In this document: positions 5,937-64,000 of the stretch, in pieces | Numbering within the stretch: the stretch's first letter is position 1 | How the letters are laid out: each line of letters opens with the position of its first letter | Source: Dehalococcoidia bacterium | Lineage (GTDB): Bacteria > Chloroflexota > Dehalococcoidia > Bin125 | DNA: 64,000 nt | Assembly: GCA_963555985.3 (NCBI GenBank) | Contig: OY820591.1 | Coordinates: forward strand, 96,001 to 160,000 | Reading direction: 5' to 3' | The notes under the pieces: model-generated | What the model saw: only the letters and a program-made list of their open reading frames with translations | Told to the model about the DNA's origin: nothing | The model's database searches: none | Made by a program: the position numbers and the translations under genes

Positions 5937-7025
5937 ATGACCACCACTACCGCCCCCTTCGCCTACGCGAACACGACTTGGCCCGTGCTTGATCGGATGG
6001 CTGAGGCGCACCGTCGCAGTTGGCAGATGCTGGCGTCGCCGGGCGACTGGTGGACGGGCGCGGAGCGGGTCTCGATTGCAGCTGAGAGCCGGCGCGCCTC
6101 GGCATTGGTAGACGGCTTGCCCGATCCTGGACCGGGACCGGCCGAACTGCCCGAGGCGGCGGCGTTCGCGGCGCATAAGCTGATCGGCGACCTGCCCAAC
6201 GTCTCGCATGAGTGGTACGAGGAGACCACGACCGCCGAGGGGATGTCGGACGCGCACTACATCGAGCTGCTGGGCGTGGTCGTGCACGTCTGGTCGGTAG
6301 ACGAGTTTCACCGCGCGCTCTCGCTGCCGCTGGAACCGTTGCCCGAACCGATCGGAGGCGAACCCACGCGGATTCGGCCAACGGGCGCGAAACAGCACGG
6401 CAGTTGGTCGCCGACCGTCCGGCCCGAAGACCTGGGCGAGCGCGAAGCGGACATCTACGGCGGGGCCGAATACGCCGCCAACGTGCGCGCGGCCATGAGC
6501 CTGCACCCCGACAGCGTGCGCTGGCTGGCCGATCTGTTCGACGCGCACTATCTGAGTTGGATCGAGATCGCCGGCGAGCAGGAGTCGTTCCGCATACTGA
6601 CCCGTCCGCAGCGAGAGTTGGTGGCGGCGAGAGTATCGGCGCTGAACGAATGCTTCTATTGAACGATCTCGCACGTGATGCTGCTCGGTCGGAGCAGCGA
6701 AGGTAACGACGCATTAAACCTGAACGGTACGGTGCGGAACGATATTGATAGCGGCGTCGAACACGGCGAAGTACTGCTTCGCTATTCCGACGCAGCGGTG
6801 GCTCACACATCCGATCTGGCGGCTGCGCGCAATGCGCTGAACGCGGCGATGGGGCCGGACGCAGTCGTGGATTGCGCCGCCACCATCGCCAATTTCCAGC
6901 GCATGGTGCGGATCGCGGACGGCTGCGGCATTCCTCTCGATTCATTCTCCCGCCGCGAGTCGGAGAAGTGGCGAGACGGTCTGGGGATCGACGGCTTCCG
7001 CAGTCGCGGGAACACGTTCGGCTGA
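5937..7025 (+). CDS. AhpD/CMD-like selenoprotein paralog (CFYU; Sec codon 6660-6662)
   Basis: ORFs 5937-6662 and 6675-7025 are in frame across TGA (NECFY-U-TISH); homologous to the upstream gene on both sides of the UGA. Confidence 0.85.
6680..6698 (+). promoter_or_regulatory. Putative bacterial SECIS hairpin
   Basis: GCTGCTC-GGTCG-GAGCAGC; loop starts 25 nt after the UGA, same register as in the paralog. Confidence 0.7.
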
Positions 7026-7351
7026 GGAGGTTTTGGGCCGGCGAGCGTGCGAGTTGATCTGGTTTGCCGCTCGCTCTATCGTTGAGCCTTGAGCACCCAG
7101 CTCTGGGTCGCCAAATGTTCGGAGTTGAGCCCACTCTCGGCCTTCGACGTATTCCGGCAGTCCAGTCCCGGTCACCACACCTTCGGTGGTCGGAGCGCCA
7201 CCGAAACCAGGACCGGCGCGTTGGATCGCTCGATGCAGCGCCGAACCACGGGACCTCGCTTGGCTCCATACGAACGTGGCGTCTTACCGCTGGGGAATTC
7301 TCTGGACGCCCCCACTCACTGCGAGCGGGGGCGTCCGGCTGATTGGCGATC

Positions 7352-8005
7352 ATGTCACAACGGGTTTCGTTGTTCATCGACTACCAGAACGCATACGGCC
7401 AAGCACGCGACCTGTTCCACCAGCCGGATGACGATCCCACCTGCGGGCAGTTTCGCCCCTGGGCGCTTGGCGAATTCGTCTGCGGCCAGTACAACGAGCG
7501 ACATCCTGGGGAACCGCCCCTGGAGCTGAATGAAGTGCGGCTCTATCGGGGAGAGCCCGTGCGGCGAATGAGCCAGGTTGCATATGACGCCTTTCAACGC
7601 CAGCGCGCTGCCTGGGAGCAGGCGGGCGTGCAAGTCTTCTCAGCACCATTGCAGTATGACCAGCATGGCGAACCGCAGGCTGAGAAAGAGATCGACGTAC
7701 AACTCGCGATTGACTTCGTCATTGGCGCGGTCGAGCGGACATACGATGTTGGCGTGCTCTTCTCATTCGATCGCGATCTGCTACCGGCACTGCGATACGT
7801 TCGTGCGCAGCAGGCAAGCCACTGCCGGGCCGACGTTGCCGGCTGGGGCGGGATCAGAGACGGTAGATACTTGAGTCCGCCTGGTCAACGCCCTGTTCGT
7901 CATCTGGTTGGCAAGTCGGATTATCAGCGTCTGGCGGACGCCACCGACTATACGAAGCGAAGCTCGAACTATCGCCGAGCTCGACGACAGCGCCGCCGCC
8001 GCTGA
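7352..8005 (+). CDS. NYN domain (PIN-like, LabA/DUF88) putative RNase
   Basis: FIDYQN, EKEIDVQLAID, LFSFDRDLLP acidic motifs. Confidence 0.85.
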   Translation: MSQRVSLFIDYQNAYGQARDLFHQPDDDPTCGQFRPWALGEFVCGQYNERHPGEPPLELNEVRLYRGEPVRRMSQVAYDAFQRQRAAWEQAGVQVFSAPLQYDQHGEPQAEKEIDVQLAIDFVIGAVERTYDVGVLFSFDRDLLPALRYVRAQQASHCRADVAGWGGIRDGRYLSPPGQRPVRHLVGKSDYQRLADATDYTKRSSNYRRARRQRRRR

Positions 8006-8009
8006 CCAC

Positions 8010-8498
8010 CTATTTCACCGTCCCCAACACTCGCACCACCTCGATCGCGGCCTGCGCAGCTTCTTCGCCTTTGTTGCCGGCTTCGCCTCCGGCTCTGGCG
8101 AGGGCGAGGGCGACGGTTTGGGTGGCGAGGACTTCGAAGATGATGGGGACGCCGGTGTCGAGGCCGACTCGGGCGATGCCTTGAGTGGCTCCGTCTACGA
8201 CGAGGCGGTAGTGGTCGGTTTCGCCCTCGATCACGGCGCCCAGGCAGATGACGGCGTCGAAGCGTCCGGTTTGGGCGCACTTCTGGGCGACCAGCGGAAT
8301 CTCGAACGCTCCGGGCACCCAGTAGACGTCGATTGCATCCGAGTCTGCGCCGCTGGCTTCGAGGTGATCGAGGCAGCCGTCCAGCAGTTTGCCGGTGACG
8401 AAGTCGTTGAAGCGGGAGACGACGATGGCGAAGCTGAGGCCGGCGGCGGGGCCGCGTTCGGGGTCGGGCGGGAGTGCGCCGTCGTGGATGCGGACCAT
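8010..8498 (-). CDS. ribH: 6,7-dimethyl-8-ribityllumazine synthase
   Basis: VSRFN, VPGAFEIP, LGAVIEGETDH, GNKGEEAA. Confidence 0.95.
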   Translation of the reverse strand: MVRIHDGALPPDPERGPAAGLSFAIVVSRFNDFVTGKLLDGCLDHLEASGADSDAIDVYWVPGAFEIPLVAQKCAQTGRFDAVICLGAVIEGETDHYRLVVDGATQGIARVGLDTGVPIIFEVLATQTVALALARAGGEAGNKGEEAAQAAIEVVRVLGTVK

Positions 8499-8507
8499 GG
8501 GCGGCTC

Positions 8508-9902
8508 CTAGCCGATGGCGGCTCGGCGCGGAGGACGGGGCGGTTCGTCGTCGGCCGGTTCGGTCGAGCGAATGTCGTCGGCGTCGAGCATGTGCCCCAT
8601 CTTCTCGTGTTTGACCGAGAGATAGCGCACGTTGTGGGGGTTGGCGCTGGCGATCACGGGCACGCGCTCGACGATTTCGAGGCCGTAACCGGCGAGACCG
8701 TGGCGCTTGGCCGGGTTGTTGGTCATCAGGCGGATGCGGGAGACGCCGAGGTCGCGCAGAATCTGCATCCCGATTCCGTAGTCACGGCGGTCGGGGGCAA
8801 AGCCGAGCGCGAGATTGGCTTCGACCGTATCCATGCCCTGATCCTGGAGCGCGTAGGCGGCGATCTTGTTGTGCAGACCGATCCCGCGGCCCTCCTGAGC
8901 CATGTAGACGATCACGCCGCGGCGCTCTTCGGCGACCATGCGCATAGCCAAGTCCAACTGCTCGCCGCAGTCGCAGCGCTGGGAGCCGAAGACGTCGCCG
9001 GTGAGGCATTGCGAGTGGACGCGGACGAGGGTGGGATGTTCGCCGTTGACGTGACCCATCACCATCGCTACGTGCTCTTCGGCGTGGTCCGAGGTGCGGT
9101 AGCCGATCAGCCGCCAGGTGCCGTGCGCGGTCGGCAGCTTGGCCTCGGAGACGCGCTCGACCAGCTGCTCGGTGCGCAGGCGATACTGGATGATCTGCTC
9201 AACCGAGACAATCTTGAGCTTGTGGCGCTTGGAGAAGCGAACGAGCTCAGGCAAGCGCGCCATCGTGCCGTCGCGCTTCATGATCTCGCAGATCACCGCA
9301 CCCGGCTGGAGTCCGGCCAGACGGCAGAGATCGACCGAAGCCTCGGTCTGGCCGGCGCGGACGAGCACGCCGCCGTCGCGGGCGCGGAGCGGGAACATAT
9401 GCCCCGGCCGCACGAGGTCGTCGGGGCCGGAGTTGAGATCCATCAAGACTTGAATCGTGCGGGCGCGGTCGTGGGCGGAGATGCCGGTGGTGACGCCGGT
9501 GCGAGCTTCGACGCTGACCGTGAAGGCGGTGCCGAGCGGCGCCGTGTTCTGTCCGACCATCGGGTAGAGGCTGAGTTGATCGAGCCGATCGCCGTCCATG
9601 GGTACGCAGATCAGTCCGCGCGCGTGGGTGGCCATGAAGTTGATCGTGTCGGCGGTCACGAACTGGGCGGGCAGCGCGAGATCGCCCTCGTTCTCGCGAT
9701 CCTCGTCGTCCGTGATGATCAGCATTTCGCCCTGGGCGAAAGCCTCGATCGCCTCTTCGACGGTGCAGAAGGGAGACTGCCTGCGCTTGGACGCGCGGCG
9801 CTTGGCGGGCTTGCGCCGCGCGCGCGGCTGCTTCGCCGCCGCTTCCCGGCCGGCGCTCTCATTGGCGGGAGCGGATTCAGGGACGGACTCGGCCTCAGTC
9901 AT
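8508..9902 (-). CDS. ribBA: Bifunctional DHBP synthase / GTP cyclohydrolase II
   Basis: DDEDRENEGD, RAGQTEA, RVHSQCLTGDVFGSQRCDCG, QEGRGIGL, TNNP; alternative start at 9941. Confidence 0.95.
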   Translation of the reverse strand: MTEAESVPESAPANESAGREAAAKQPRARRKPAKRRASKRRQSPFCTVEEAIEAFAQGEMLIITDDEDRENEGDLALPAQFVTADTINFMATHARGLICVPMDGDRLDQLSLYPMVGQNTAPLGTAFTVSVEARTGVTTGISAHDRARTIQVLMDLNSGPDDLVRPGHMFPLRARDGGVLVRAGQTEASVDLCRLAGLQPGAVICEIMKRDGTMARLPELVRFSKRHKLKIVSVEQIIQYRLRTEQLVERVSEAKLPTAHGTWRLIGYRTSDHAEEHVAMVMGHVNGEHPTLVRVHSQCLTGDVFGSQRCDCGEQLDLAMRMVAEERRGVIVYMAQEGRGIGLHNKIAAYALQDQGMDTVEANLALGFAPDRRDYGIGMQILRDLGVSRIRLMTNNPAKRHGLAGYGLEIVERVPVIASANPHNVRYLSVKHEKMGHMLDADDIRSTEPADDEPPRPPRRAAIG

Positions 9903-10536
9903 GGATTCCCCCTCCGGCGAGATCGAGTTGGGGTCGGTCATGGCTTTCCCGTTCCGCTTCTCTGGCGCTGATCAGCGCGTCCACATAGCGCGCGAGGATG
10001 TCGGTCTCCAGATTCACCTCGTCGCCCGCTCGGCGGTCGAGCAGGTTGGTGTGCTCCTGAGTGTATTGAACCAGGGAGACGGCAAAGCCCAATTCGTCCT
10101 TGTCAATAATCGTGAGCGAAACGCCGTCGATGCAGATGGGCCCTTTGACGATCATGTAGCGAAGCAGTTCGGGCGGCGCGTCGTAGGAGACGACGATCGC
10201 GTCGGCCTCCGGGCGGGTGTCGCGGAAGGCGCCGCGCCCCTCAACCACGCCGCGCACCAGATGCCCGCTGAGCCGATCCATCGGCCGCACCGATCGCTCC
10301 AGGTTGACCCGCGCTCCCGCTCCGAGTTGGCCCAGATTGGAGCGGCGGTAGGTCTCGGGCATCACGTTGGCGAGGAAGCGATCGCCGTCGATTGCAGTGA
10401 CGGTGAGGTCAACGCCGTTAATGGCGATGGAGTCGCCGAGCTTGGCGTCTGCGAGGATGAGGGGAGCGTGGATCCAGAGGAGTCCGTCGTCGGCTTGGTC
10501 GATCAGGCCGACTTCTTCGATGATGCCGGTGAACAC
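9895..10536 (-). CDS. ribE: Riboflavin synthase alpha chain
   Basis: N-terminal MFTGIIEE, GDSIAINGV, VNLE repeats. Confidence 0.95.
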   Translation of the reverse strand: MFTGIIEEVGLIDQADDGLLWIHAPLILADAKLGDSIAINGVDLTVTAIDGDRFLANVMPETYRRSNLGQLGAGARVNLERSVRPMDRLSGHLVRGVVEGRGAFRDTRPEADAIVVSYDAPPELLRYMIVKGPICIDGVSLTIIDKDELGFAVSLVQYTQEHTNLLDRRAGDEVNLETDILARYVDALISAREAERESHDRPQLDLAGGGIHD

Positions 10537-10624
10537 GTGCGCCTCCTGGGTTTGGGGTCATGGTACCTGGGAGGCTGGCTTTTGGGCGTTGGGGCGTCCC
10601 CTCGCCCCAGCTCCTTCCGCCTAC

Positions 10625-10935
10625 CTCCGTCATACCCGCGCCCAGAGCTCCGCCATCCCCGCCCCAACAAGCTCCGTCATACCCGCGCCCCGTCGCGGAG
10701 CCTGTCCCCGCGAAGGCGGGGATCACTCGCCGCGACCAGCACCCCAGCCCCGGCCGCCTCCCATTTCCGTCATTCCTGCGCAGGCAGGAACCACGAACCT
10801 CCCAACCCCCAAACGCAAATCAAAACCCCCGCCGTACCCCGACCGCCCCAAACCCCAACTCCCCTCTCCCCCCTCCGCGGAGCCTGTCCCCGCGTAGGCG
10901 GGGAGGGAGATGTCCCGTAGGGACAGAGGGGGGGG
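10625..10935 (+). repeat. Cluster of REP-like palindromes (families A and B), left flank of the terminase module
   Basis: Several CCGTCAT(A/T)CC.GCG units plus CTCCCC..GGGAGATGTCCCGTAGGGACAGAGGGG; bounds approximate. Confidence 0.8.
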
Positions 10936-11039
10936 CGCCCCTCAAATGCCAACCACGACACACCCCCAAATTACCCACCCGAACACCCATCCATATAAGA
11001 TCAAGTGTCCTTCATTGAGCAAGAGAGGAACCCGGACCC

Positions 11040-11396
11040 ATGCCCTTCAACTACAGCTACCAGTCCGCCATGGCCGGCGTCGGCGAGCTCGCCTTCTCCA
11101 AGCGCGAACCCGGCTACGTCCGCGCCCAAGCCTTCGCCATCCTGCGCCGCGAACTCTCCCCCGCCAACCCCAAGAGCCGCGAGATCCACTACGCGCTCGG
11201 CATCGAACCCCACCCCGAGCCCCCGCCCCGGCCCAACCATTCCCCCCACCTGCCCGAAGCCCCGCTCACCGCTGAGCAGCAGAAGGAGTTCCACCTCCAC
11301 TCGGTCCACGCCCAAGCAGCCGCCCTCATGCGCGGCGAAGACGTCCCCCTGACGGAGGACGAGGAAAGCGAAGAGGAAGAGGATGAGCCACAGTAA
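11040..11396 (+). CDS. Hypothetical protein with acidic tail; occupies the small-terminase position
   Basis: GAGG SD; clear paralog at 63582-63950; 3' end overlaps the terminase start. Confidence 0.8.
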   Translation: MPFNYSYQSAMAGVGELAFSKREPGYVRAQAFAILRRELSPANPKSREIHYALGIEPHPEPPPRPNHSPHLPEAPLTAEQQKEFHLHSVHAQAAALMRGEDVPLTEDEESEEEEDEPQ

Positions 11397-12804
11397 TACC
11401 CCCAGCTCAAAGCGGGCGGTCGTTGCGTTCGACCGCTTGCACAAGTCTCGCGGTTTTTTTCCGACGGACAGACAGCGCGAGCTCTGTTGCGCAGTCGCTA
11501 CCGTGCCCAATCCCGGCCTCGCCCTGGTCGGCTACGGCGGCGCCATGGGCGGCGGCAAGACCCGCGCCCTGGCCGAGCTCGCCCTGGACGCGGCCTTGAT
11601 CTTCCCGGGCAACAACATCCTGCTCGCACGCGACACGTTCACAGACCTCTACACCACGACCATGGGCGAGTTCCTGCGCATCTGCACCGCAGACCCCGAC
11701 CTCACTGTCCAACGCCGCAGTTCACCCACCCATTCCCTCACGGTCAGCAGCCTCCAGTACTCGAGCGAACCCTCCACGATCCACTTTCGCCATCTCTCCG
11801 ACTGGACCGGACTCGGCTCCCAGCAGTACGGAACCGTGCTCATAGACGAAGCCGGCGAAGTGGCCGAAGAAGCCGCCCAAATGCTCTTGACCAGACTCCG
11901 CCACCCGGCCCAACCGCAACGCTGGTTCGTGGCCGCCTCCAACCCCCATCCAGGCTGGTTCGAGCGCTGGTTCGTCCAACGCGAACTGAACAAAGCTGAA
12001 CTGGAGCACGCCGGCGGACAAGCCCGCTTCATCCCCGCCAAGATCGAGGACAACCCCTATCTCCCGGACAACTACGCCGAGCAGCAGCGCGCCCTGCTCC
12101 CGCCCGACTGGGTCGAACGCTTCATCGAGGGCCGCTTCGACGCCTTCGACGGCCTCGTCTACCCCAAATTCGACCCCAAGCTGCACTGCTGGACGGGACG
12201 CCTACCCAGCTTCGAGCGCTACATCGGCGGCCTCGACTTCGGCGCTCAGACCGAGCAAGCCCACTACACCGCCGGCATCGTCGCCGGCCTCACCGCCCGC
12301 TACGCCGTCTGCGGACCCAACGTCTTGATCCGCCTGGCCGAGTTCGAGGACAGAGGCCCCGGCGTCACCCAGCGGCTCGAACAGTGGATGCTCCAGTGCC
12401 GCCGGCGCTTCGGCTCAATCAGTTGGAACGCCGACCGCAGCCAATCCGCCTGGATCGACCATCTTCACCGCCGCGGCCGCGACATCCGTCCCAGCCGGGG
12501 CGGGCCCGGCTCCGTCCACCAGGGCATCGGCCTGGTCCAAGAGCGGCTCGCCGCCGACCCGCCCCAGTCCTTCTACACCCCCGAGCTCGTCCAGTTCCCG
12601 CGCCGCATGAGGGAGTACCAGTGGCGAGACCCCCGCGCCGCCAACCCCCAACCCCGAGACCGCGACGACGACCTCCTGGACGCCGACCGCTACTGCCACG
12701 AGCTGGCCCAACCCCAGCCCCAAGCCCCAACCACCCGGATCGAGTTCTTCCACCTCCCGCCCGTCGACCGCGGCCGCATCGCCAGCATGAGAAACCAGCT
12801 CTAA
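11383..12804 (+). CDS. Phage-type terminase large subunit (ATPase plus RNase H-like nuclease)
   Basis: FPTDRQ adenine motif, Walker A GGAMGGGKT, Walker B VLIDEAGE, ASNP coupling motif, DNPYL, nuclease GLDFG and DDLLDADRY. Confidence 0.9.
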   Translation: MSHSNTPSSKRAVVAFDRLHKSRGFFPTDRQRELCCAVATVPNPGLALVGYGGAMGGGKTRALAELALDAALIFPGNNILLARDTFTDLYTTTMGEFLRICTADPDLTVQRRSSPTHSLTVSSLQYSSEPSTIHFRHLSDWTGLGSQQYGTVLIDEAGEVAEEAAQMLLTRLRHPAQPQRWFVAASNPHPGWFERWFVQRELNKAELEHAGGQARFIPAKIEDNPYLPDNYAEQQRALLPPDWVERFIEGRFDAFDGLVYPKFDPKLHCWTGRLPSFERYIGGLDFGAQTEQAHYTAGIVAGLTARYAVCGPNVLIRLAEFEDRGPGVTQRLEQWMLQCRRRFGSISWNADRSQSAWIDHLHRRGRDIRPSRGGPGSVHQGIGLVQERLAADPPQSFYTPELVQFPRRMREYQWRDPRAANPQPRDRDDDLLDADRYCHELAQPQPQAPTTRIEFFHLPPVDRGRIASMRNQL

Positions 12805-12819
12805 CCCATGCCCACCCAC

Positions 12820-13172
12820 AATTCCGTCATCCCCGCCCCCAAGAATCTCCCCCTCAAGGGGGAGATGCCCCAACGGGGCAGAGGGGGTGAAACGCCACCC
12901 CCAGCACAAACGCCCCCAACCAACCTCCCCTCTCCCCCTCTGCGGAGCCTGTCCCCGCGCACGCGGGGAGGGAGATGCCGCGCAGGCGGGGGACAGAGGG
13001 GGGTACCCACCCCCAGCATCCAAGCCCCAAGCAACCCCCAAGGAGACCTGCGCGTAATCCCAAATTCCGTCATTCCAGGCTTGACCTGGAATCTCGTCCA
13101 GAATTGCAGACTATCTGGTCGGAGCGAGATTCCAGCGTTCGCCGGAATGACGAGAGCAACGGGAATAGCCAA
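12820..13172 (+). repeat. Cluster of REP-like palindromes, right flank of the terminase module; includes an intact REP doublet at 13065-13172
   Basis: Family B units at about 12844-12892 and 12928-13003; CCGTCATTCCAGG..CCTGGAATCTCG...CGAGATTCCAGCG..GGAATGACG. Confidence 0.8.
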
Positions 13173-13180
13173 GTGAGGCG

Positions 13181-14773
13181 CTACTCGGTGAGGGCTTTGA
13201 TGAGGGTGTTGAGGCCGTTGGGGGATTTTCGGTAGTAGCGGTAGCCGGCCTTGCGCCAGCTATCGGCGGTGGGGGCGTTTCGGGAATGGAGCGGGGCTGT
13301 GATCCATTGGCGCTCGCGGCCTTGTGCGGAAGCTTCGGAGGCTTCGCGGAGGCGTTCGGCGGCGCTGGGAGCGGCGCCTGCTCGGAGAGTGAGGCAGACC
13401 AGTTCGGCGCTCTCGCGCTCGGCCGGCAGACGCAGCGCGGCCACGCCGAGCGCGGGACGTCCGCGCTCGGCGCTTGCCATCCAGAGCACAGCCTCGCCCC
13501 GCCGAGCCTCTTCGAGCAGGGTTGCGGCCATGGGCGGAAGTTGGGCGGCGGCCAAGAGTTCATCGATCTCAGCTGCGTCGGCGGGGCCGGCGGGACGCAG
13601 GCGGATATCGAGTTCGTGCTCGGGCGGCGTGGGATAGCCGCTGATCAGGAGGTCGTCGCCCAGCTGCTCGACGCTGAGGCCGGAGAGCCGGAGCGCGTCG
13701 CGCATCCGCTCGGCGCCGCGCCCGCGCACGGCGGTCTGAGCGTCGCCGCCGATCAGCATCGGCGCGACGACGGCGTGGACTTTGTCGATCAGGCGTTGGT
13801 CGAAGAATGCGCCCAGGACTTCGCCCCCGCCCTCGACCAGCAGGTGGACGACGCCGGCCTGCTGTCCGAGCTGGTCGAGCAAGGGTTCGAGGGGGACGCG
13901 CCCGTGCTCGGCGGGGAGCGTGAGCACGCTGACGCCGCGCGCTTCGAGGCTGACGCGCCAGTCTTCGGGCGCAGCCTCGGTAGTCGCGATCAGAGTGGGG
14001 GAAGTGTCGATCCCGTCCAGGATGCGCGCATCGAGAGGAGTGCGGCCGCGGCTGTCGAGCACGACGCGGAGCGGTTGGGGCACGGGTCCGCGCCAGTCGG
14101 CGGGGCGGGCGGTGAGTTGAGGGTTGTCGAGCAGGATCGTGCCGACGCCGACCAGGATGGCGTCGAAACGGGGTCGGTTCTGGTGCGCCCAAGCGAGCGT
14201 CTGAGGACCGGAGATCCAGCGGGAGTCGCCGCTGACGGCGGCGATCCGTCCGTCGAGCGAGGCGGCGAACTTGGCCGAAACGAAGGGGCGTCCGCTGCGG
14301 CGGTGATGTTGGTACGGCTCGTAGTGTTGCGCGGCCTGGGCTGCGTCGTCGCCGACGCTGACGCTGATGCCGGCCTTGCGGAGTTGTTCGAGTCCGCGTC
14401 CGGCGACTTGGGGATCGGGGTCGAGGCAGGCGACGACGACTTGGGCGACGCCGGCGCGGATCAGAGCGTCGGCGCAGGGCGGGGTGCGTCCCTGGTGGGC
14501 GCAGGGTTCGAGGGTGACATAGAGGGTGGCGCCCCGGGCTTGGGCGCCAGCCTGGCGCAGGGCGACCGCTTCGGCGTGAGGGCCGCCCGGGGGCTGGGTC
14601 GCGCCTTCACCGACGATCCGGATCGATTGGCGGCGCTCGTCGCTGCGGGGGTGTTGGACGAGGACTGCGCCGACGGCGGGGTTGGGGCTGGTCCAGCCGA
14701 GCGCGGAGCGGGCGAGTTCGAAGGCTCGCGCCATGGGGCGGGAGAGTGCGGGTTGGGCGGGCGTGGTCGTCAT
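13181..14773 (-). CDS. ribD: RibD deaminase/reductase with a C-terminal GNAT-like extension
   Basis: PNPAVGA, HAE, TLEPCAHQGRTPPC, SLDG, DNPQLTAR, VEGGG; about 145 extra residues starting IRLRPAGPAD. Confidence 0.92.
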   Translation of the reverse strand: MTTTPAQPALSRPMARAFELARSALGWTSPNPAVGAVLVQHPRSDERRQSIRIVGEGATQPPGGPHAEAVALRQAGAQARGATLYVTLEPCAHQGRTPPCADALIRAGVAQVVVACLDPDPQVAGRGLEQLRKAGISVSVGDDAAQAAQHYEPYQHHRRSGRPFVSAKFAASLDGRIAAVSGDSRWISGPQTLAWAHQNRPRFDAILVGVGTILLDNPQLTARPADWRGPVPQPLRVVLDSRGRTPLDARILDGIDTSPTLIATTEAAPEDWRVSLEARGVSVLTLPAEHGRVPLEPLLDQLGQQAGVVHLLVEGGGEVLGAFFDQRLIDKVHAVVAPMLIGGDAQTAVRGRGAERMRDALRLSGLSVEQLGDDLLISGYPTPPEHELDIRLRPAGPADAAEIDELLAAAQLPPMAATLLEEARRGEAVLWMASAERGRPALGVAALRLPAERESAELVCLTLRAGAAPSAAERLREASEASAQGRERQWITAPLHSRNAPTADSWRKAGYRYYRKSPNGLNTLIKALTE

Positions 14774-16095
14774 GTCGCGCGGCGGCGGTTGAGGTTCCAG
14801 AGGAAGGCCCAGAGCAGGAGGGCGGCGACGGTGACGGCGGCGAGCGCGATCTGGACGGGGGTTTCCCAGCTCGGGTCGGCGCTGAATTCGCCTGCCGCCT
14901 GGGGCCGGGCGGGGATGGGCCAGTCGTCGGCGTGGCGATCGGCGCTGCGGTGGACGGTGCGCTGGTCGTGGTCGGGGATCTGGATGCGGCGGACGCGCTC
15001 TCCGTCCTGTCCGGCTGTGGAGACGACGATCACGCGAACGGGTTGGGGATCGTCCGGTTGGTCGTCGCTGAGGGCGGCGGGTTCGCTCTGCTGCTCGGGC
15101 TCGGCGACGGGTTGGCTCTGCGCTTCGGCTTCGGGTTGGGCGTCGGCGTCAGTGGAGGCGGTGTCTGCGCCGGCGTCGTCTGCCACGTCTACAGCGTCCG
15201 CTGCCGGCTCAGCTTGGGCCGTCTGGTTGGTGTTGGGCGCGTCGTGCTCGGGGGTGGCGGACTGGGACTGGGACTGCCCGGTGTTGATGCCGGCGGTGAC
15301 GGCGCCGCGAGCGGGATCGCGGGCGGCCTCCTGTTGCTCGGCGGTGATGGCAGGAGGCGTGTCTTCGGCGGCGGTCTGTTCGGCTTGGGCGAGCGGCTGC
15401 GCTTGCTCTGTTTCGGCTTGCGCTTCTTCGGCTGCCGCCGGCGCAGCGGTTGGTTCAGGTGCTTGGGATTGCACCGCTGCGGTCGCCGACTGTTGGGCCG
15501 GTTCGCTTGAGGCGGCGGCGACAGTCGCGGTTTGTTCGGCCGGTTCGGTTTCGATTGGAGCGGCGGGCGGATCGGCGGCCTGGGCTGCGGACTGTTGGGC
15601 GGTCTGCGCGTCGGCGGTTGCAGCGGTCGTGACTGCGGCGGCGGTTGGTTCCGGAGTCGCGGCGAGCGGTGCGGAGCCGTCGGGATCGTCGAGCATGTCG
15701 AAGCCGCTGACGGTGGCGAGCGCGACCAGGGAGGCGACGGCGCCGGCGGTGGCGAGCCGCAGGGGGATGGCGCGGACGGCGGTCGCGCGTTCGTTGAGGG
15801 GTTGGGCATGGGCGGCGCGGGCGGCGGCGAACTGGGTTTCACTGAGCTCGAAGCTGCGGGGCAGTTCGGCCGTGGAGAGCAAGGCGAGGGTTTGCTGGAC
15901 GTGTTCGATCTCGGCGAGCCACTGGCGCCGCTCCGGAGAGTCGTCGAGGCGGGCCTGGGCGCGTTCGCGTTGGGCGGAGGTGAGTTCGTCGTCGGCGTAT
16001 GCGGAGAGTTCGGCGCGCCAGGCGCGGGTCCAGGGTAGGCGCGGCCGGAGCCGGAGTCTGAGCCCAGATCGGCGGGGTGGATTCGGACCTCTCAC
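14770..16095 (-). CDS. Putative membrane anti-sigma factor with an Ala/Gln/Glu-rich linker
   Basis: LSAYADDEL..(zf-HC2-like, Zn ligands absent), two hydrophobic segments, directly downstream of an ECF sigma. Confidence 0.75.
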   Translation of the reverse strand: MRGPNPPRRSGLRLRLRPRLPWTRAWRAELSAYADDELTSAQRERAQARLDDSPERRQWLAEIEHVQQTLALLSTAELPRSFELSETQFAAARAAHAQPLNERATAVRAIPLRLATAGAVASLVALATVSGFDMLDDPDGSAPLAATPEPTAAAVTTAATADAQTAQQSAAQAADPPAAPIETEPAEQTATVAAASSEPAQQSATAAVQSQAPEPTAAPAAAEEAQAETEQAQPLAQAEQTAAEDTPPAITAEQQEAARDPARGAVTAGINTGQSQSQSATPEHDAPNTNQTAQAEPAADAVDVADDAGADTASTDADAQPEAEAQSQPVAEPEQQSEPAALSDDQPDDPQPVRVIVVSTAGQDGERVRRIQIPDHDQRTVHRSADRHADDWPIPARPQAAGEFSADPSWETPVQIALAAVTVAALLLWAFLWNLNRRRAT

Positions 16096-16133
16096 GGTTG
16101 CTGCTCCTGTACAGCTAGACGCTGAAGCATTGG

Positions 16134-16718
16134 TCAGAGTTCCCCTCGCTCGGGCAGCAGCTCGCGCATTTTGGCGCGGGCGCGGGCGATGCGCGACTTC
16201 ACCGTACCAACTGAGACATTGGTGGCGCTGGCGATTTCCTGGTAAGAGAAGCCGTCGATGTCGCGCAGGGTCAGGGCTTGGCGCTGATCGTCGGGCAATT
16301 GGGCGAGAGCGGCGACGATTACGCGACGTAACTCGCTATCGAGCGCGCGGCGTTCGGGGGAGCGCTCTCGGCTCGGCAGGGCGTAGGCGTCGCCAAAGGT
16401 CTCCATTTGCTGGTCGATGGAGTCGGTCGGTCGGCGTTTGCGGCGTCGCAGTTCGTCGCGGCAGCGGTTGCCGGCGATGGTCAGCAGCCAACCGGCGAAA
16501 TTTCCACCGCGATAACGATCGAGCGAGCCGAGGGCGCGAATGAAGGTGTCCTGGGTGATGTCTTCGGCGGTGTCCGGTCCGACCATGCCGGCGCAGAGTG
16601 CGAAGACGCGGCGCTGGTAGCGGCGGACGAGGGTGTTGAAGGAGGCGCGGTCGCCGGCGCGCGCGGCGGCGGCGAGATCGTCGTCGCTGGGAGGCGGTTG
16701 GTCGGCTGCGCTGCTCAC
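16134..16718 (-). CDS. ECF RNA polymerase sigma factor
   Basis: AEDITQDTF, WLLTIAGN, SYQEIA..GTVKSRIARAR. Confidence 0.93.
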   Translation of the reverse strand: MSSAADQPPPSDDDLAAAARAGDRASFNTLVRRYQRRVFALCAGMVGPDTAEDITQDTFIRALGSLDRYRGGNFAGWLLTIAGNRCRDELRRRKRRPTDSIDQQMETFGDAYALPSRERSPERRALDSELRRVIVAALAQLPDDQRQALTLRDIDGFSYQEIASATNVSVGTVKSRIARARAKMRELLPERGEL

Positions 16719-16874
16719 CCTGTCCTCCGCCGCCCCGCGCCGCGCAGTCGCCCCCTGTTCACGCCAGGGGCAGGCAGTGGAGCGGAGCAGCGGCCAACGT
16801 GAATACGGGGGAATTTTATCAGGGGGCGGGGGTGTTGTGCGAGACTGGATGGAGGCTGGATTCCGGTCTCGGAC

Positions 16875-16921
16875 CTCCCTCTGTCCCTGCGGGACATCTC
16901 CCCCCGCAAGGGGGGAGAGAT
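16875..16921 (-). repeat. REP-like palindrome, family B, reverse orientation
   Basis: CTCCCTCTGTCCC..GGGACATCTCCCCCCGCAAGGGGGGAGA. Confidence 0.75.
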
Positions 16922-16932
16922 TTGGAGTTGTG

Positions 16933-17769
16933 ATGGTGTTGGTTGATCCTCGTCCGGTGGTTGCTGCGGCCTATGAGTCGGGGCGGGCGGTGGTGGCGGG
17001 GAATGTGTCGACAGTGGAGATGGTTCGGGGGTTGGTTGGAGCGGCTGAGGATGCGGAGCGGCCGATCTTGATTCAGTTCAACCGGGCGGGCTTGGGGCAG
17101 ATTGGGGGACTGGAGCTCGCGGCGGCGGCGGTGCGGGCGGCGGCGGGAGAGTCGGTTGCGGAGGTTGGTTTGCACCTGGATCACGCGGATTCATTGCAGG
17201 AGTTGTCGGACGCGATCAATGCGGGCTTCGGCTCGGTGATGATCGACGGCTCGACCTTGCCGTATGCGCGTCATGTGCAGCTGGCGCAGTCGGCGCGGGG
17301 GCTGGCGGCGTGGAGCGGTCTGCCGCTGGAGGCAGAGTTGGGGCACGTGGCGGGGACGGAGGAGGGAGTGACGATCGGGGCGGCGTCGTGGACGGATCCG
17401 GACGAGGCGGCGGCGTTCGTGTCGGCGACGGAGGTGGACTGGCTGGCGGTGGCGGTGGGGAACGTGCACGGGGGCGCGCCGATCGGTGGTCTGCACGTGG
17501 AGCGCTTACAGGCGATCCGGGAACGGGTGGCGGTGCCGCTGGTGCTGCACGGCGCGAGCGGTCTGGGGGAGGCGGAACTGAAGCTGGCGGCGGAGTTGGG
17601 GGTGGCGAAGATCAATGTGGGCACGGCGCTGCATGAGGCGATGGCGGAAGGGATGGGTTCGAGTCTGCGTGAGCGTCCGGGCGATTTGCGGCGGGCGTTG
17701 CGGAGCGGAGAGGCGGCGGTGCGAGAGGTTGGCCGGGGGTTGTTGTTGTCGAGTTGGGCGGTGGGGTGA
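16933..17769 (+). CDS. Class II fructose/tagatose-bisphosphate aldolase family protein
   Basis: LHLDH, SVMIDGS, EAELGHV, GNVHG, LHGASG, KINVGT. Confidence 0.9.
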   Translation: MVLVDPRPVVAAAYESGRAVVAGNVSTVEMVRGLVGAAEDAERPILIQFNRAGLGQIGGLELAAAAVRAAAGESVAEVGLHLDHADSLQELSDAINAGFGSVMIDGSTLPYARHVQLAQSARGLAAWSGLPLEAELGHVAGTEEGVTIGAASWTDPDEAAAFVSATEVDWLAVAVGNVHGGAPIGGLHVERLQAIRERVAVPLVLHGASGLGEAELKLAAELGVAKINVGTALHEAMAEGMGSSLRERPGDLRRALRSGEAAVREVGRGLLLSSWAVG

Positions 17770-25823: not shown

Positions 25824-26240
25824 ATGGGCGAGATTGTGGTGGAGATTGAGTTGGAGAACATCGGCGATCGGAAGCTGGCTGAGGCGGGGATTCGAGCTGA
25901 GGCGGATGTGCGGCGGGAGACGCTTCGCGCGGTGGCCGATACCGGAGCGGTGATGTTGGCGCTGCCGGCGGATGTGGTGGAGCGGCTCGGCGTGCCCGTG
26001 GTGGACACGATTACGACGACGTATGCCGACGGTCGCCGGGGGGAGCTGCCGGTGTCCGACACGCTGACGATTCGGATTGGGGATCGGCGCATGGGGACGG
26101 AGTGCATCGTCGTGCCGGAGGGCGCGGAAGCGCTGGTCGGGCAGGTGGTGATGGAGGTGCTGGATCTGATTGCGGACCCGGTGAACCAGACGCTGGGCCC
26201 GAGGCCGGAGTCGCCCGATCGGCGGTTGTTGCGGGTGTGA
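25824..26240 (+). CDS. Clan AA (retropepsin-like) aspartic protease
   Basis: ADTGA catalytic motif, YADG flap, ALVG. Confidence 0.87.
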   Translation: MGEIVVEIELENIGDRKLAEAGIRAEADVRRETLRAVADTGAVMLALPADVVERLGVPVVDTITTTYADGRRGELPVSDTLTIRIGDRRMGTECIVVPEGAEALVGQVVMEVLDLIADPVNQTLGPRPESPDRRLLRV

Positions 26241-26315
26241 GGGGTCGGCCCTTCATCGTTCGTGACAGGGGCGGCGGGTATATTGGGGCTGTGAGCGCGG
26301 CGTTTGGAGGTTGTC

Positions 26316-26732
26316 ATGGGCGAGATCATCGTTGAGATCGAGTTGGAGAATCGCGAGGATCGTTACGACGCGCTCAGGGGGCGGATAGACGAGAATTCGG
26401 TGCGGCGGGAGACGATTCGCGCGGTGGCCGACACCGGGGCGGTGATGTTGGCGCTGCCTGAGGATCTGGTGGAGCGGCTCGGCGTGCCCATGGTGGACAC
26501 GATTACGACGACGTATGCCGACGGTCGCCGGGGGGAGCTGCCGGTGTCCGACACGCTGACGATTCGGATTGGGGATCGGCGCATGGGGACGGAGTGCATC
26601 GTCGTGCCGGAAGGCGCGGAGGCATTGGTTGGTCAACTGGTGATGGAGCGCCTCGATCTGATCCCCGACCCGTTGAATCAGACGCTGGGTCCGAGGCCGG
26701 AATCGCCCGATCGGCCGTTGTTGCGGGTGTGA
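26316..26732 (+). CDS. Clan AA aspartic protease, tandem duplicate
   Basis: ADTGA; GGAGG SD; core nearly identical to the upstream copy. Confidence 0.87.
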   Translation: MGEIIVEIELENREDRYDALRGRIDENSVRRETIRAVADTGAVMLALPEDLVERLGVPMVDTITTTYADGRRGELPVSDTLTIRIGDRRMGTECIVVPEGAEALVGQLVMERLDLIPDPLNQTLGPRPESPDRPLLRV

Positions 26733-32309: not shown

Positions 32310-32526
32310 CTCCGTCATTGCCGCGCTTGCCGCGGCAATCTCGCCGCGCTGTGCACTGACGTCCGAGCTGGAACGGCGAGTGATCCCCGCCTTTGGAGGC
32401 CTGTGCAAAACGCCCGTTTCCGTCATTCCCGCGCAGGGAGGCCTTTGCAAAACAGCCATTTCCGTCATTCCAGGCTTGACCTGGAATCTCGTTCGGAGTT
32501 CGGTCTATCCGGTCGGGCGAGATTCC
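32310..32526 (+). repeat. Cluster of family A REP-like palindromes; the last doublet is interrupted by IS30
   Basis: CCGTCATTGCCGCG..CGCGGCAATCTC; CCGTCATTCCCGCG; CCGTCATTCCAGG..CCTGGAATCTC. Confidence 0.8.
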
Positions 32527-33565
32527 CTAGTCTCACAGACGAAGTGCGACAGATGATTGAGGTGAGCCCATGGGCGCGCAGTACACGCAGTTGGACCTGG
32601 CGGAGCGATGCGCGGTTGCCCGCTTACAGGCCGAGGGGCGCTCGATCCGGCAGATCGCTGCAGCTCTGGATCGCTCGCCATCGACGATTGCTCGAGAGCT
32701 GAAACGCAACACGGCGCGCGACGGCTACCGTCCCGACTACGCCCAGCAACAGGCCCAGGCGCGGCGCTGGCGCGGTTCGCGGCTGGAACGCGACGATCAG
32801 CTGCGCGCGCGGGTGCTGCGCGAGTTGGCCCGCGGGCTCTCGCCGCAACAGGTCGCAGGCCGGCTGGCGCGCGAGGCGGGCGCGCCGGTGATCTCGCACG
32901 AGAGCATCTATCGCTTCATCTACGCCCAAGCCTCGCGGGCCAAGCCCGGCCGCGGCGGCGGTTGGCGCCAGTATCTGCCGCGGCGCAAGGCGAAACGCGG
33001 TTGGCGCGGGCGCAAAGGCGGCAGTTCGGTCGAGCGCATCCAACTGCGGCGGCCCCTGAGCGAGCGCCCGGCGGCGGCCGCCGGGCGGCTCGAAGCCGGT
33101 CACTGGGAGGCCGACCTGATGCTCTTCGGGCGCGGCGGTCCGCTCCTGCTGATGCTGCACGAGCGCTCCTCGCGGCTGCTCGTGGGCTTGCCCGTGGCGG
33201 GCAAGGCGGCCGCTCCGGTCGCGCGCCTGCTGCTCAGCCTGCTCCGCGCCTGGCCGCCCGCCCTGCGGCGCACGGTCGCGTTCGACAACGGGACCGAGTT
33301 CGCCCGCCACTACGAACTGCACCGGCTGGGCGTGGAGACCTTCTTCTGCGACCCCTACGCGCCCTGGCAGAAGGGCGGGATCGAGAATGCGATCGGACGC
33401 CTGCGCCGGGTCCTGCCGCGCCGGCTCGACCTCGCCCAACTCAGCCTCGCGCGTTTGATCGAAGTGCTGCAGTTGTACAACAACACCCCCCGCCAGTGCC
33501 TCGACTACCTCTCCCCGGCCGAAGTCTTCGGTCGGCAGTTGTTGCAGTTGCAATGTGAACCCACC
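32527..33565 (+). mobile_element. IS30 family insertion sequence
   Basis: Bounds from comparison with the empty REP doublet at 13065-13172; imperfect terminal IRs (TCACAgacgAAgTGCgACA vs TGTtGCAgTTgcaaTGTGA). Confidence 0.8.
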
Positions 33566-33586
33566 TTCCAGCTTTCGCTGGAATGA
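32570..33586 (+). CDS. IS30 transposase
   Basis: HTH SIRQIA..RSPSTIARELKRN, SHESIY, GHWEAD, FDNGTEF, PWQKGGIEN, NNTPR..L. Confidence 0.93.
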   Translation: MGAQYTQLDLAERCAVARLQAEGRSIRQIAAALDRSPSTIARELKRNTARDGYRPDYAQQQAQARRWRGSRLERDDQLRARVLRELARGLSPQQVAGRLAREAGAPVISHESIYRFIYAQASRAKPGRGGGWRQYLPRRKAKRGWRGRKGGSSVERIQLRRPLSERPAAAAGRLEAGHWEADLMLFGRGGPLLLMLHERSSRLLVGLPVAGKAAAPVARLLLSLLRAWPPALRRTVAFDNGTEFARHYELHRLGVETFFCDPYAPWQKGGIENAIGRLRRVLPRRLDLAQLSLARLIEVLQLYNNTPRQCLDYLSPAEVFGRQLLQLQCEPTFQLSLE

Positions 33587-33968
33587 CGAGAGCAGCGGGA
33601 ATGCCAATTTGCAAAGGCCTCCGCAGGCGGGAATCTCGAAGCAACCAAGCCCGAAGCCACCTCCACATCTGGTCGTACCGCCAAATTCACATCGCGCGAT
33701 CCGCTCCTCCGAGTCCTCAGCCGCCCGCAGTGGATTTTCGCAAACGTTTCCTCGGGCCTGTTCACACAACCACGAGCGCGGTCGGCCCGCACGCGCGCCG
33801 GTCTCGAGGCTGAGCCTCGGCGCTCCGCTCCCCGCCCTCCGCAACCGAGCCGAAACCGGGTATGCTCAGAACATATACGCGCACGAATCCAATGGGAGCT
33901 CGCGATGTTCCGTGAACGACTCGCGCCAAACCTGGACGCTGCTGGACAGGCCCGGATTCTTCGGGAAA

Positions 33969-63260: not shown

Positions 63261-63470
63261 CTCCGTCATACCCGCGCTCCGCCGCGGGTATCTCGCCGTG
63301 ACCAGCCCCCAACCCTCATCCCACCTCCCCAAAATCTCCCCCTTGAGGGGGAGATGCCCCGTAGGGGCAGAGGGGGTGAAACGCCACACCCAGCACAGAC
63401 GCCCTGCACCTCCCTCCCCGCCCCCACTTCCGTCATACCCGCGCTCCGTCGCGGGTATCTCGCCGTGACC
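63261..63470 (+). repeat. REP-like cluster (A-B-A) upstream of the second small-gene copy
   Basis: Two CCGTCATACCCGCGCTCCG.CGCGGGTATCTCGCCGTGACCAGC units; 63333-63404 is nearly identical to 12844-12915. Confidence 0.82.
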
Positions 63471-63581
63471 AGCACCCAACCTTCCGACAACCGCAACACA
63501 CCATCGGTTTGCAACCCGAACATCAGAACATATAAACTCACCTATCCAAAACACAGGTTCCCAAGAAAGGAACACCCCACC

Positions 63582-63950
63582 ATGCCCTTCGACTACACCT
63601 ACCAGTCCAGCATGACCGGCGTCGGCCAACTCGCCCACTCCAACGAAGCCGGCCACGTCCGCATCAAAGCGCTCGCCCTCCTCATCCGCGAACTCTCCCC
63701 CTCCAACTCCAAGAGCCGCGAGATCCACCACGCGCTCGACATCCCACCACATCCCGAACCCGCGCCCAAACCCCGAGCCAACCACTCTCCCCGCCTGCCC
63801 GAAGCTCCGCTCACTCCCGAGCAGAAGAAGGACTTCCACCTCCACCCGATGTTCGAGATCTACGACGAAGTCGTCGCCTTCATGCGCGGCGAAGACGTGC
63901 CCCTGCTGGACGACGACGACAGCCTCGAAGAAGAGGAAGAGCCGCAGTAA
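63582..63950 (+). CDS. Hypothetical protein, paralog of 11040-11396
   Basis: MPF.Y.YQS.M.GVG.LA, RELSP.N.KSREIH, NHSP.LPEAPLT.EQ.K.FHLH, MRGEDVPL, acidic tail ending EPQ; AAGGA SD. Confidence 0.82.
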   Translation: MPFDYTYQSSMTGVGQLAHSNEAGHVRIKALALLIRELSPSNSKSREIHHALDIPPHPEPAPKPRANHSPRLPEAPLTPEQKKDFHLHPMFEIYDEVVAFMRGEDVPLLDDDDSLEEEEEPQ

Positions 63951-64000
63951 TCCCCCGACCGCAAGCGGCAAACCCAACCTCGTTTTTTTCTCACAGCCCC

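Follow-up and report, generated by a model that had tools for sequence, protein, structure and literature searches.

Terminase genes count among the hallmarks of tailed viruses, and metagenome analyses rely on them when calling a sequence 'viral'. Phage-inducible chromosomal islands and other satellites (SaPI type and cf-PICI) carry a small terminase of their own, and repetitive extragenic palindromic (REP) elements together with a RAYT transposase make up REPtrons. Here we analyzed a 64,000-nt stretch of the genome of a Dehalococcoidia bacterium (Chloroflexota; contig OY820591.1, positions 96,001 to 160,000, forward strand; hereafter the window), in which a small and a large terminase gene lie between the riboflavin genes ribD and ribE, and we compared this locus with those systems, with the phage holoterminase and with insertion sequences. 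With about as much confidence as doubt, we read the 2.6-kb insert as a full-length representative of a 'terminase-only' cassette that derives from a phage and is specific to this lineage. Counting shortened versions, the genome contains about 30 copies of it.

The pair has the same folds and motifs as the phage holoterminase (phrog_51 small terminase, TerS, with a Terminase_3 PBSX-like large terminase, TerL; solved example D6E TerL, 5oe8) and the same gene order, with the small gene just upstream of the large one (overlapping it in the cassette), and the two proteins are predicted to be in contact. It differs in having no adjacent portal, capsid or tail gene, in a small subunit that corresponds to the C-terminal half only, and in being chromosomal, multicopy and long persistent in one bacterial family. 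Satellites likewise hold phage packaging genes in the chromosome outside a prophage; unlike them, the cassette spans only ~1.9 kb, is without integrase, repressor, replication or capsid-remodelling genes, carries the large terminase, and occurs in dozens of copies with shortened derivatives. Insertion sequences with miniature inverted-repeat transposable elements (MITEs), e.g., the IS30 element of this genome, also combine intact and many shortened intergenic copies with a common end, whereas the cassette encodes no transposase of a known family and showed neither inverted ends nor a target duplication, and its derivatives, which lack the right end, retain a small gene that is open and under selection. 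REPtrons likewise embed a gene in palindromic repeat arrays, but no Y1 (RAYT, PF01797) transposase was found in this genome or in eight related repeat-rich genomes, with controls matching as expected; in addition, the cassette repeats are direct on one side, and the cassettes of relatives are not flanked by repeats.

The gap between ribE and ribD measures 2,644 nt and contains two plus-strand genes, antisense to both rib genes, which overlap by 14 nt. The features of the locus are as follows.

9895..10536, minus strand: ribE (riboflavin synthase), its start facing the left end of the insert
10620..10946, plus strand: left repeat zone of direct 'TCCGTCAT + hairpin' boxes, which are IS30-like terminal-repeat units, at 10625-10643, 10672-10690 and ~10764-10790 and other palindromic units between them (10688-10722, 10855-10935)
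10947..11039, plus strand: conserved leader of the cassette core, its start 'CAACCACGACACAC' common to all three subfamilies
11040..11396, plus strand: mini small-terminase gene, 118 aa (tblastn copies; family profile against phrog_51)
11383..12804, plus strand: large terminase, 473 aa, ATPase plus RNase H-like nuclease, intact (Pfam, PHROG, structure, family alignment)
12805..12816, plus strand: right core end common to all five full copies ('...CCAGCTCTAACCCATGCCC')
12817..13040, plus strand: right repeat zone of one direct TCCGTCAT box followed by palindromic units, present in 4 of the 5 full copies
13041..13172, no strand assigned: MITE of ~130 nt with IS30-family terminal repeats, >30 genomic copies
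13181..14773, minus strand: ribD (530 aa, with a C-terminal extension), its stop ~9-15 nt from the right edge of the MITE (13166-13172)

Beyond ribE follow ribH and ribBA, and the antisense insert separates ribD from ribE-BA-H. In relatives the tblastn alignments of ribD and ribE end 4-183 nt apart at 22 of 23 loci, the remaining locus having no ribD within 1.5 kb. Because the two genes are contiguous in those 22, the terminase pair is an insertion, as the initial annotation had proposed along with the coordinates, overlap and orientation of the two open reading frames (ORFs). The annotation had further recognized no other phage gene in the window and had argued against a prophage, and both points held. 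A Pfam scan of 56 GC3-filtered window ORFs detected no phage family besides terminase and no integrase, and the sole mobile-element gene among them was one IS30-like transposase. Genome-wide, where portal (PF04860) and capsid (PF05065) were the two structural families searched, the portal gave no match and the capsid a single sub-threshold one (18.7 bits at C1:1976379); for gene-transfer-agent genes the picture is the same within those two families. Integrase, structural, lysis and regulatory genes, which together would mark a prophage, were not found around the pair.

TerL is an intact, uninterrupted protein. It matched Terminase_6N (4.9e-8) and Terminase_3 (1e-7) in Pfam and seven PHROG families, every one a large terminase, the best being phrog_2 (1.6e-26, residues 51-440); the match to NCBIfam TIGR01547 fell below that model's cut-off. 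An AF2 model (pLDDT 82.2, pTM 0.56) retrieved the D6E terminase as the top solved structure (E 1e-21), followed by Sf6, HK97 and T4 gp17, and a fold search also matched the nuclease domains of SPP1 and G20c. Invariant across a 42-sequence family alignment are G56/G57/K59, D155/E156, S186/N187, D285, D351 and D433/D435. We take the GGxK, DE and SN motifs to be Walker A, Walker B and the coupling motif, and the remaining acidic residues to belong to the nuclease, of which D285, D351 and D433/D435 would form the active site. The protein thus carries an N-terminal P-loop ATPase, recognized by the Pfam, PHROG and NCBIfam matches and the invariant motifs, and a C-terminal RNase H-like nuclease, recognized by the reach of phrog_2 to residue 440, the fold matches and the invariant acidic residues. 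A head-morphogenesis context was found neither in the window, nor at eleven loci of relatives, nor in the genome with the portal and capsid models. No isolated phage exceeded 28% identity to TerL, and the nearest viral contig reached 42%. The only families that matched the cassette proteins in Pfam and PHROG were terminases, with no known transposase family among them, and no PADLOC-DB 2.0 model matched either protein.

The small protein, which the initial annotation had called an orphan, turned out to have 27 tblastn paralogs in the genome and recognizable counterparts overlapping the TerL start at 12 of 15 related loci (manual reading). From the N-terminus, it has three helices, then a Pro-rich linker, then an acidic tail whose last residues are DEPQ; its AF2 model (pLDDT 69.9) is confident for the three helices and disordered in the tail. 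Searched alone, it had no significant match in Pfam, PHROGs, NCBIfam or PADLOC; among viral structures the top match stood at E 0.23, which is not significant, and an Atlas search returned only unnamed viral clusters (0.92). The family occurs in two forms, one with '..NVRLRAWELxGxxxGMF..' and the other, to which the window protein belongs, with '..PAYVQxxATKALARxxGLY..' and an acidic tail ending in DEPP. In the viral contig with the 42% identical TerL, a phrog_51 small terminase (5.8e-30) lies directly upstream of TerL, and the small-ORF family profile aligned to residues 113-154 of that TerS (hhalign E 8.3e-5, probability 61%). A profile search of 1.8 billion representatives gave 90 matches, and 19 of the 23 longer or weaker ones that were scanned are phrog_51 small terminases, aligned in their C-terminal half. 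The family profile carries the C-terminal core helix of phrog_51 ('..RLRAxELLxxxxGxF'); the window protein is linked to phrog_51 through the family alignment, which is a weaker tie than the family-level match. The N-terminal 60-70 residues of the full-length TerS proteins, which match phrog_17390 and phrog_641, lie outside the profile coverage, and no N-terminal helix-turn-helix was found in the small gene. Given the viral neighbor, the hhalign alignment and the phrog_51 profile matches, the small gene descends from the C-terminal half of a phrog_51-type TerS that lost its DNA-binding N-terminus.

The phrog_51 core presumably forms rings and contacts TerL, and a complex prediction for the two cassette proteins gave a median score of 0.59 (best control 0.01), with runs agreeing in at least 70% of contacts and a partner pLDDT of at least 56. 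Of the solved complexes, 58 of 80 attained the mark used, as did 2 of 110 mismatches; at scores of 0.60 or lower, only 7 of the 80 solved complexes and both mismatches did. The contact is thus tentatively predicted, and the pass may reflect likeness to solved terminase complexes.

Far from the stand-alone unit of the initial annotation, the window pair is one of ~30 copies. Five full TerL copies (100, 97, 97, 97 and 87% identity) are monophyletic in the tree, and their dN/dS of 0.10-0.28 at dS 0.12-0.31 points to purifying selection on all five. The small ORF has 28 tblastn copies, one of them on a small contig that duplicates a main-contig stretch; 27 of the 28 are open (108-126 aa), and they fall into two subfamilies with shared in-frame cassettes and a pooled dN/dS of ~0.4. 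A third subfamily adds two more shortened copies, with a more typical small gene. The ~25 shortened copies retain the left end, leader and small gene and stop inside the first 40-70 TerL codons. Specifically, 19 of 23 non-full copies (manual reading; 18 with a stricter pattern) stop at a common '...CCCTACCGTGCC', located in a degenerate remnant of TerL codons 1-42 and followed by unrelated DNA, and other shortened copies stop near the Walker A codons. This short end resembles the full-length end '...CTAACCCATGCCC'. As with insertion sequences, multiple copies thus occupy unrelated loci and the site is empty in relatives. In 22 of 27 copies (21 of 26 without the duplicate contig; two-sided binomial p ~0.0025, our own arithmetic) the host gene downstream points the same way as the cassette, mostly at a distance of 0-165 nt, and the window copy is one of the five exceptions; because of this co-orientation, shortened copies may now drive host genes. 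Another copy, which precedes a co-oriented gene, lies at the end of the window.

63428..64000, plus strand: second, shortened cassette copy (box, leader, small ORF 63582-63950), cut by the window end

A further full copy, at 1.69 Mb of the main contig, lies just downstream of an apparent tRNA 3' end (G000:C1 ~1690570-1690640; ..TTCGAATCC..CCA; by eye).

The ends of the cassette are asymmetric: the left is fixed, with box and hairpin, and the right comes in two forms, with candidate sites '..ACCGTGCC' inside the TerL 5' region and '..ACCCATGCC' after the TerL stop. In all subfamilies the leader opens with 'CAACCAC(G/A)ACACAC', ~90 nt before the start codon, and continues by eye with a promoter-like TTACCC/TTGCAA ... 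TATAAG and a GGA-rich ribosome site; since a consensus promoter and terminator scan of 10400-13300 gave none, the promoter is a reading by eye. Left of the leader stand one to three tandem boxes 'TCCGTCATACCCGCGC', the last of which is a hairpin followed by 'ATCTCGCCGTGACCAGCACCCAACC'. Of the 23 genomic copies of the box tail GGGTATCTCGCCGTGACCAGCAC, 20 precede a small-ORF start by no more than 260 nt and share its orientation. In the 600-nt stretches before the 28 copies, 59 boxes are direct and 0 inverted, and genome-wide the box motif is equally frequent on both strands. No inverted box was found to the right of any short copy within 900 nt of the copy end. The left zone resembles, by eye, the left end of the IS30-like element that is also present in the window.

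32418..33592, plus strand: IS30-family insertion sequence (transposase 32570-33586), with ends of TCCGTCAT + hairpin

Genome self-comparison showed this to be a 1.15-kb element with 10 copies at 99-100% identity, encoding a 338-aa transposase with HTH_38 and rve domains, which we take to be the IS30-family architecture. Its ends follow a 'TCCGTCAT + hairpin + ATCTCG' build, as do the cassette boxes. Hundreds of small genomic repeats and the 130-nt MITE also carry this TCCGTCAT + hairpin motif. By its ends, the repeat at 13041-13172 is a MITE of the IS30-family element, and because both MITE and IS30 ends carry the box motif, part of the repeat bracket is IS30-type material, the rest consisting of other palindromic units. 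The dense bracket of REPs that the initial annotation had described is therefore dense on both sides as claimed, but in part of IS30-family rather than REP nature. The window copy and the copy at C1:1.69 Mb have the whole of 10626-13166 in common, with an IS30-type repeat on each side. No longer element bounded by inverted boxes was found beyond the MITE size class, using a pattern that missed one repeat variant, and no IS110 transposase was found in the genome.

Across relatives, the best 120 of 200 matches in a TerL protein search were 55-97% identical, and those with an organism name were Chloroflexota or Chloroflexi. We found the TerL family in 12 of 41 related genomes, all of one taxonomic family (genera g1, g3, g7 and g8), where it is present in 11 of 24 sampled genomes, and it was absent from 300 other genomes of the phylum at E<=1e-40; as judged from these searches, the TerL family appears confined to one Chloroflexota family. 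The scan of relatives covered eleven loci with 86 ORFs, leaving out a twelfth that nearly duplicates one of the eleven; it found no portal, capsid or tail gene, and the neighbors are housekeeping genes that differ by locus, e.g., purB|TerL|purC in L037. The expectation that homologs recur without head genes was thus borne out, and neither head clusters nor relaxed selection, either of which would have spoken against the initial annotation, was found. It had also proposed to test whether the homologs stand beside REPs: they are not repeat-flanked, and most have no IS30-like boxes upstream. Genera g8 and g3 hold one TerL copy each, the TerL clades follow the genera, and five g7/g8 copies adjoin the same pair of CoA-transferase genes in apparent synteny; dN/dS between orthologs is 0.08-0.15. 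Genomes of genus g7 have up to 6 small-ORF matches with 2-3 TerL genes, and solo small-ORF copies, i.e., shortened ones, also occur in other Chloroflexota (L012-L014). The family therefore shows both stable selected single copies and scattered multiple copies, and of the 41 genomes searched, only this one showed amplification to ~25 shortened copies. In two relatives, L037 (G006:C4, near 99569-99598) and L010, a palindromic repeat unit lies inside the TerL frame and keeps it open, at the ATPase-nuclease junction (about residue 306-311).

A role as a REP-associated nuclease, raised in the initial annotation, is not supported in that form, and we rate REP mobilization by TerL low. Within the taxonomic family, the TCCGTCAT motif is present in 9 of 12 TerL-bearing genomes and 0 of 13 without TerL, cases that are not independent because they represent three genera, so that the co-occurrence is one at genus level only. 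Genus g3 has TerL without motifs, the active IS30 element carries the motif itself, and the cassettes of relatives are free of repeats. Another family of the class provides the converse: the complete genome G029 contains 53 TCCGTCATWCCYGCG motifs, and the queries used detected neither a member of the TerL family in it nor a Y1 transposase or an IS30-like gene.

Copy number, patchy distribution, the ribD-ribE junction, the lack of head genes, selection, small-terminase ancestry and the missing Y1 and IS110 transposases count for a cassette that moves. We regard it as an evenly balanced proposition that this is a phage-derived, terminase-only cassette, mobile now or formerly, with its left end fixed and its right end loose; it looks like a selfish or half-tamed element. 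It would be a selfish element of this Chloroflexota family, mobile now or once, and the way in which it moves we infer: a polar process would begin at the fixed left end and define the right end only loosely, as the fixed left end, variable right end and retained small gene suggest. TerL, the sole enzyme encoded, would be the likely nuclease and ATP-driven motor, with the mini small terminase as its partner, and one copy would have settled at a fixed locus in some genera. That the cassette is a transposon-like element with the phage terminase as its mobility enzyme, the truncated TerS and TerL recognizing the left end, cutting, and copying or moving DNA one way, is possible, though we doubt it. 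Several observations weigh against a mobile cassette. By eye, no terminal inverted repeats and no target duplication were found at it, and we know of no terminase that catalyzes transposition. Its copies are old by their dS, in contrast to IS30 copies at 99-100% identity. In g7/g8 it is single-copy and apparently syntenic, under strong purifying selection, which fits a host function. Site-specific deletion in place could also account for the end that the short copies share: a cut at '..ACCGTGCC' would lose the DNA to the right. The left end resembles an IS30-type terminal repeat, which implies that another enzyme may move the cassette, and the cassettes of relatives are without upstream boxes. 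Finally, no insertion polymorphism is visible in short-read contigs, which break at repeats.

The host-function argument can be taken further, to a domesticated terminase whose ATP-driven nuclease or translocase the host uses, e.g., for cutting or mis-packaging invading phage DNA or for processing its own DNA, with the extra copies being duplications. The single-copy arrangement beside the CoA-transferase pair in five g7/g8 genomes, clades that follow genera, low ortholog dN/dS, catalytic motifs invariant in 42 sequences, and paralogs that are old yet intact all favor it. We nevertheless consider it unlikely, as duplication does not readily yield ~25 shortened copies that share a left end, alpha-type copies sit at varied loci, and the distribution (11 of 24 genomes within the taxonomic family, 0 of 300 further genomes of the phylum) is patchy; PADLOC offered no match, and CoA-transferase genes are so common in these genomes that the synteny may be overstated. 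If another enzyme is at work, the cassette may instead be passive cargo, with an IS30-family transposase acting on the left TCCGTCAT + hairpin boxes, or repeat-array recombination spreading it. An active IS30-family element with the same terminal motif, box tails concentrated just upstream of the cassette, the strictly direct orientation of the boxes there, and the IS30-type repeats on each side of the window and 1.69-Mb copies agree with such a role. But short copies have no inverted box on their right, cassette copies are far older than IS30 copies, cassettes occur without an IS30-like gene in G014, G024, G006, G013 and genus g3, and most relatives' cassettes have no boxes, which makes this explanation quite improbable in our view.

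A satellite-like module is harder still to credit, and we give it a slim chance. Here the terminases would redirect the empty heads of a helper phage to host DNA, and packaging would begin at each copy, so that the co-oriented genes downstream enter particles. The phage packaging origin of both genes is in line with this, as are the matching gene order in the nearest viral contig, the co-oriented downstream gene of most copies, and the retention in the short copies of the region around the small-gene end, which is where the pac site lies in some pac phages. However, the small protein lacks a pac-recognizing DNA-binding domain, the two Pfam families searched revealed neither a helper phage nor a capsid gene in the genome, the scanned window ORFs include no integrase or excision gene, and the multiplication of copies is left unexplained. 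That a decaying prophage remnant simply kept its terminase draws on the phage origin of the protein family and is next to negligible: five copies are intact and selected, different genera conserve the two-gene unit, and neither the window nor any of the eleven loci of relatives yielded another phage gene.

Regarding the assembly, the window sits in a 3.1-Mb contig, and in four sequencing runs the locus is present as short-read contigs, none of which spans the insert. One short-read joint (10744->13041) has sides of only 20-24 nt, inside repeats, and is no evidence of misassembly or of an empty site. The one metagenome that was scanned with an exact 44-mer from the start of ribE gave no match. 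The ten small contigs C2-C11 of G000 are near-duplicates of parts of the 3.1-Mb contig; they probably represent alternative assemblies, and the contamination estimate of 7.5% for G000 may stem from them. Around the insert, we detected no riboswitch or other relevant Rfam family in window 7000-17000. RibD extends ~150 residues beyond its RibD_C domain, and the extension appears conserved within the taxonomic family, where ribD tblastn alignments reach residue 517-530 at 13 of 16 loci. An NYN-domain gene (7343-8005) lies directly downstream of ribH on the opposite strand, and two adjacent small genes at 25824-26732 encode retroviral-type aspartyl protease domains (gag-asp_proteas, E ~1e-7).

The abstracts we covered describe no terminase cassette that stands alone or is multicopy; what is new in this case is the amplification with shortened copies, the TerS ancestry of the small gene, the polar IS30-type boxes and the narrow taxonomic range. 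The cassette lends itself to testing, with two small proteins, a single defined DNA end and two candidate sites of cutting. If the terminase does move it, that terminase would represent a mobility enzyme of a new class, a packaging motor converted to spreading DNA through a genome, and the short copies would have put a promoter-bearing small gene before about twenty host genes; if the cassette serves the host, it would be a new exaptation of the packaging motor. Either way, the finding warns against counting lone terminases as prophages, as a bacterial family can keep and multiply intact terminase pairs over the long term without virion genes.

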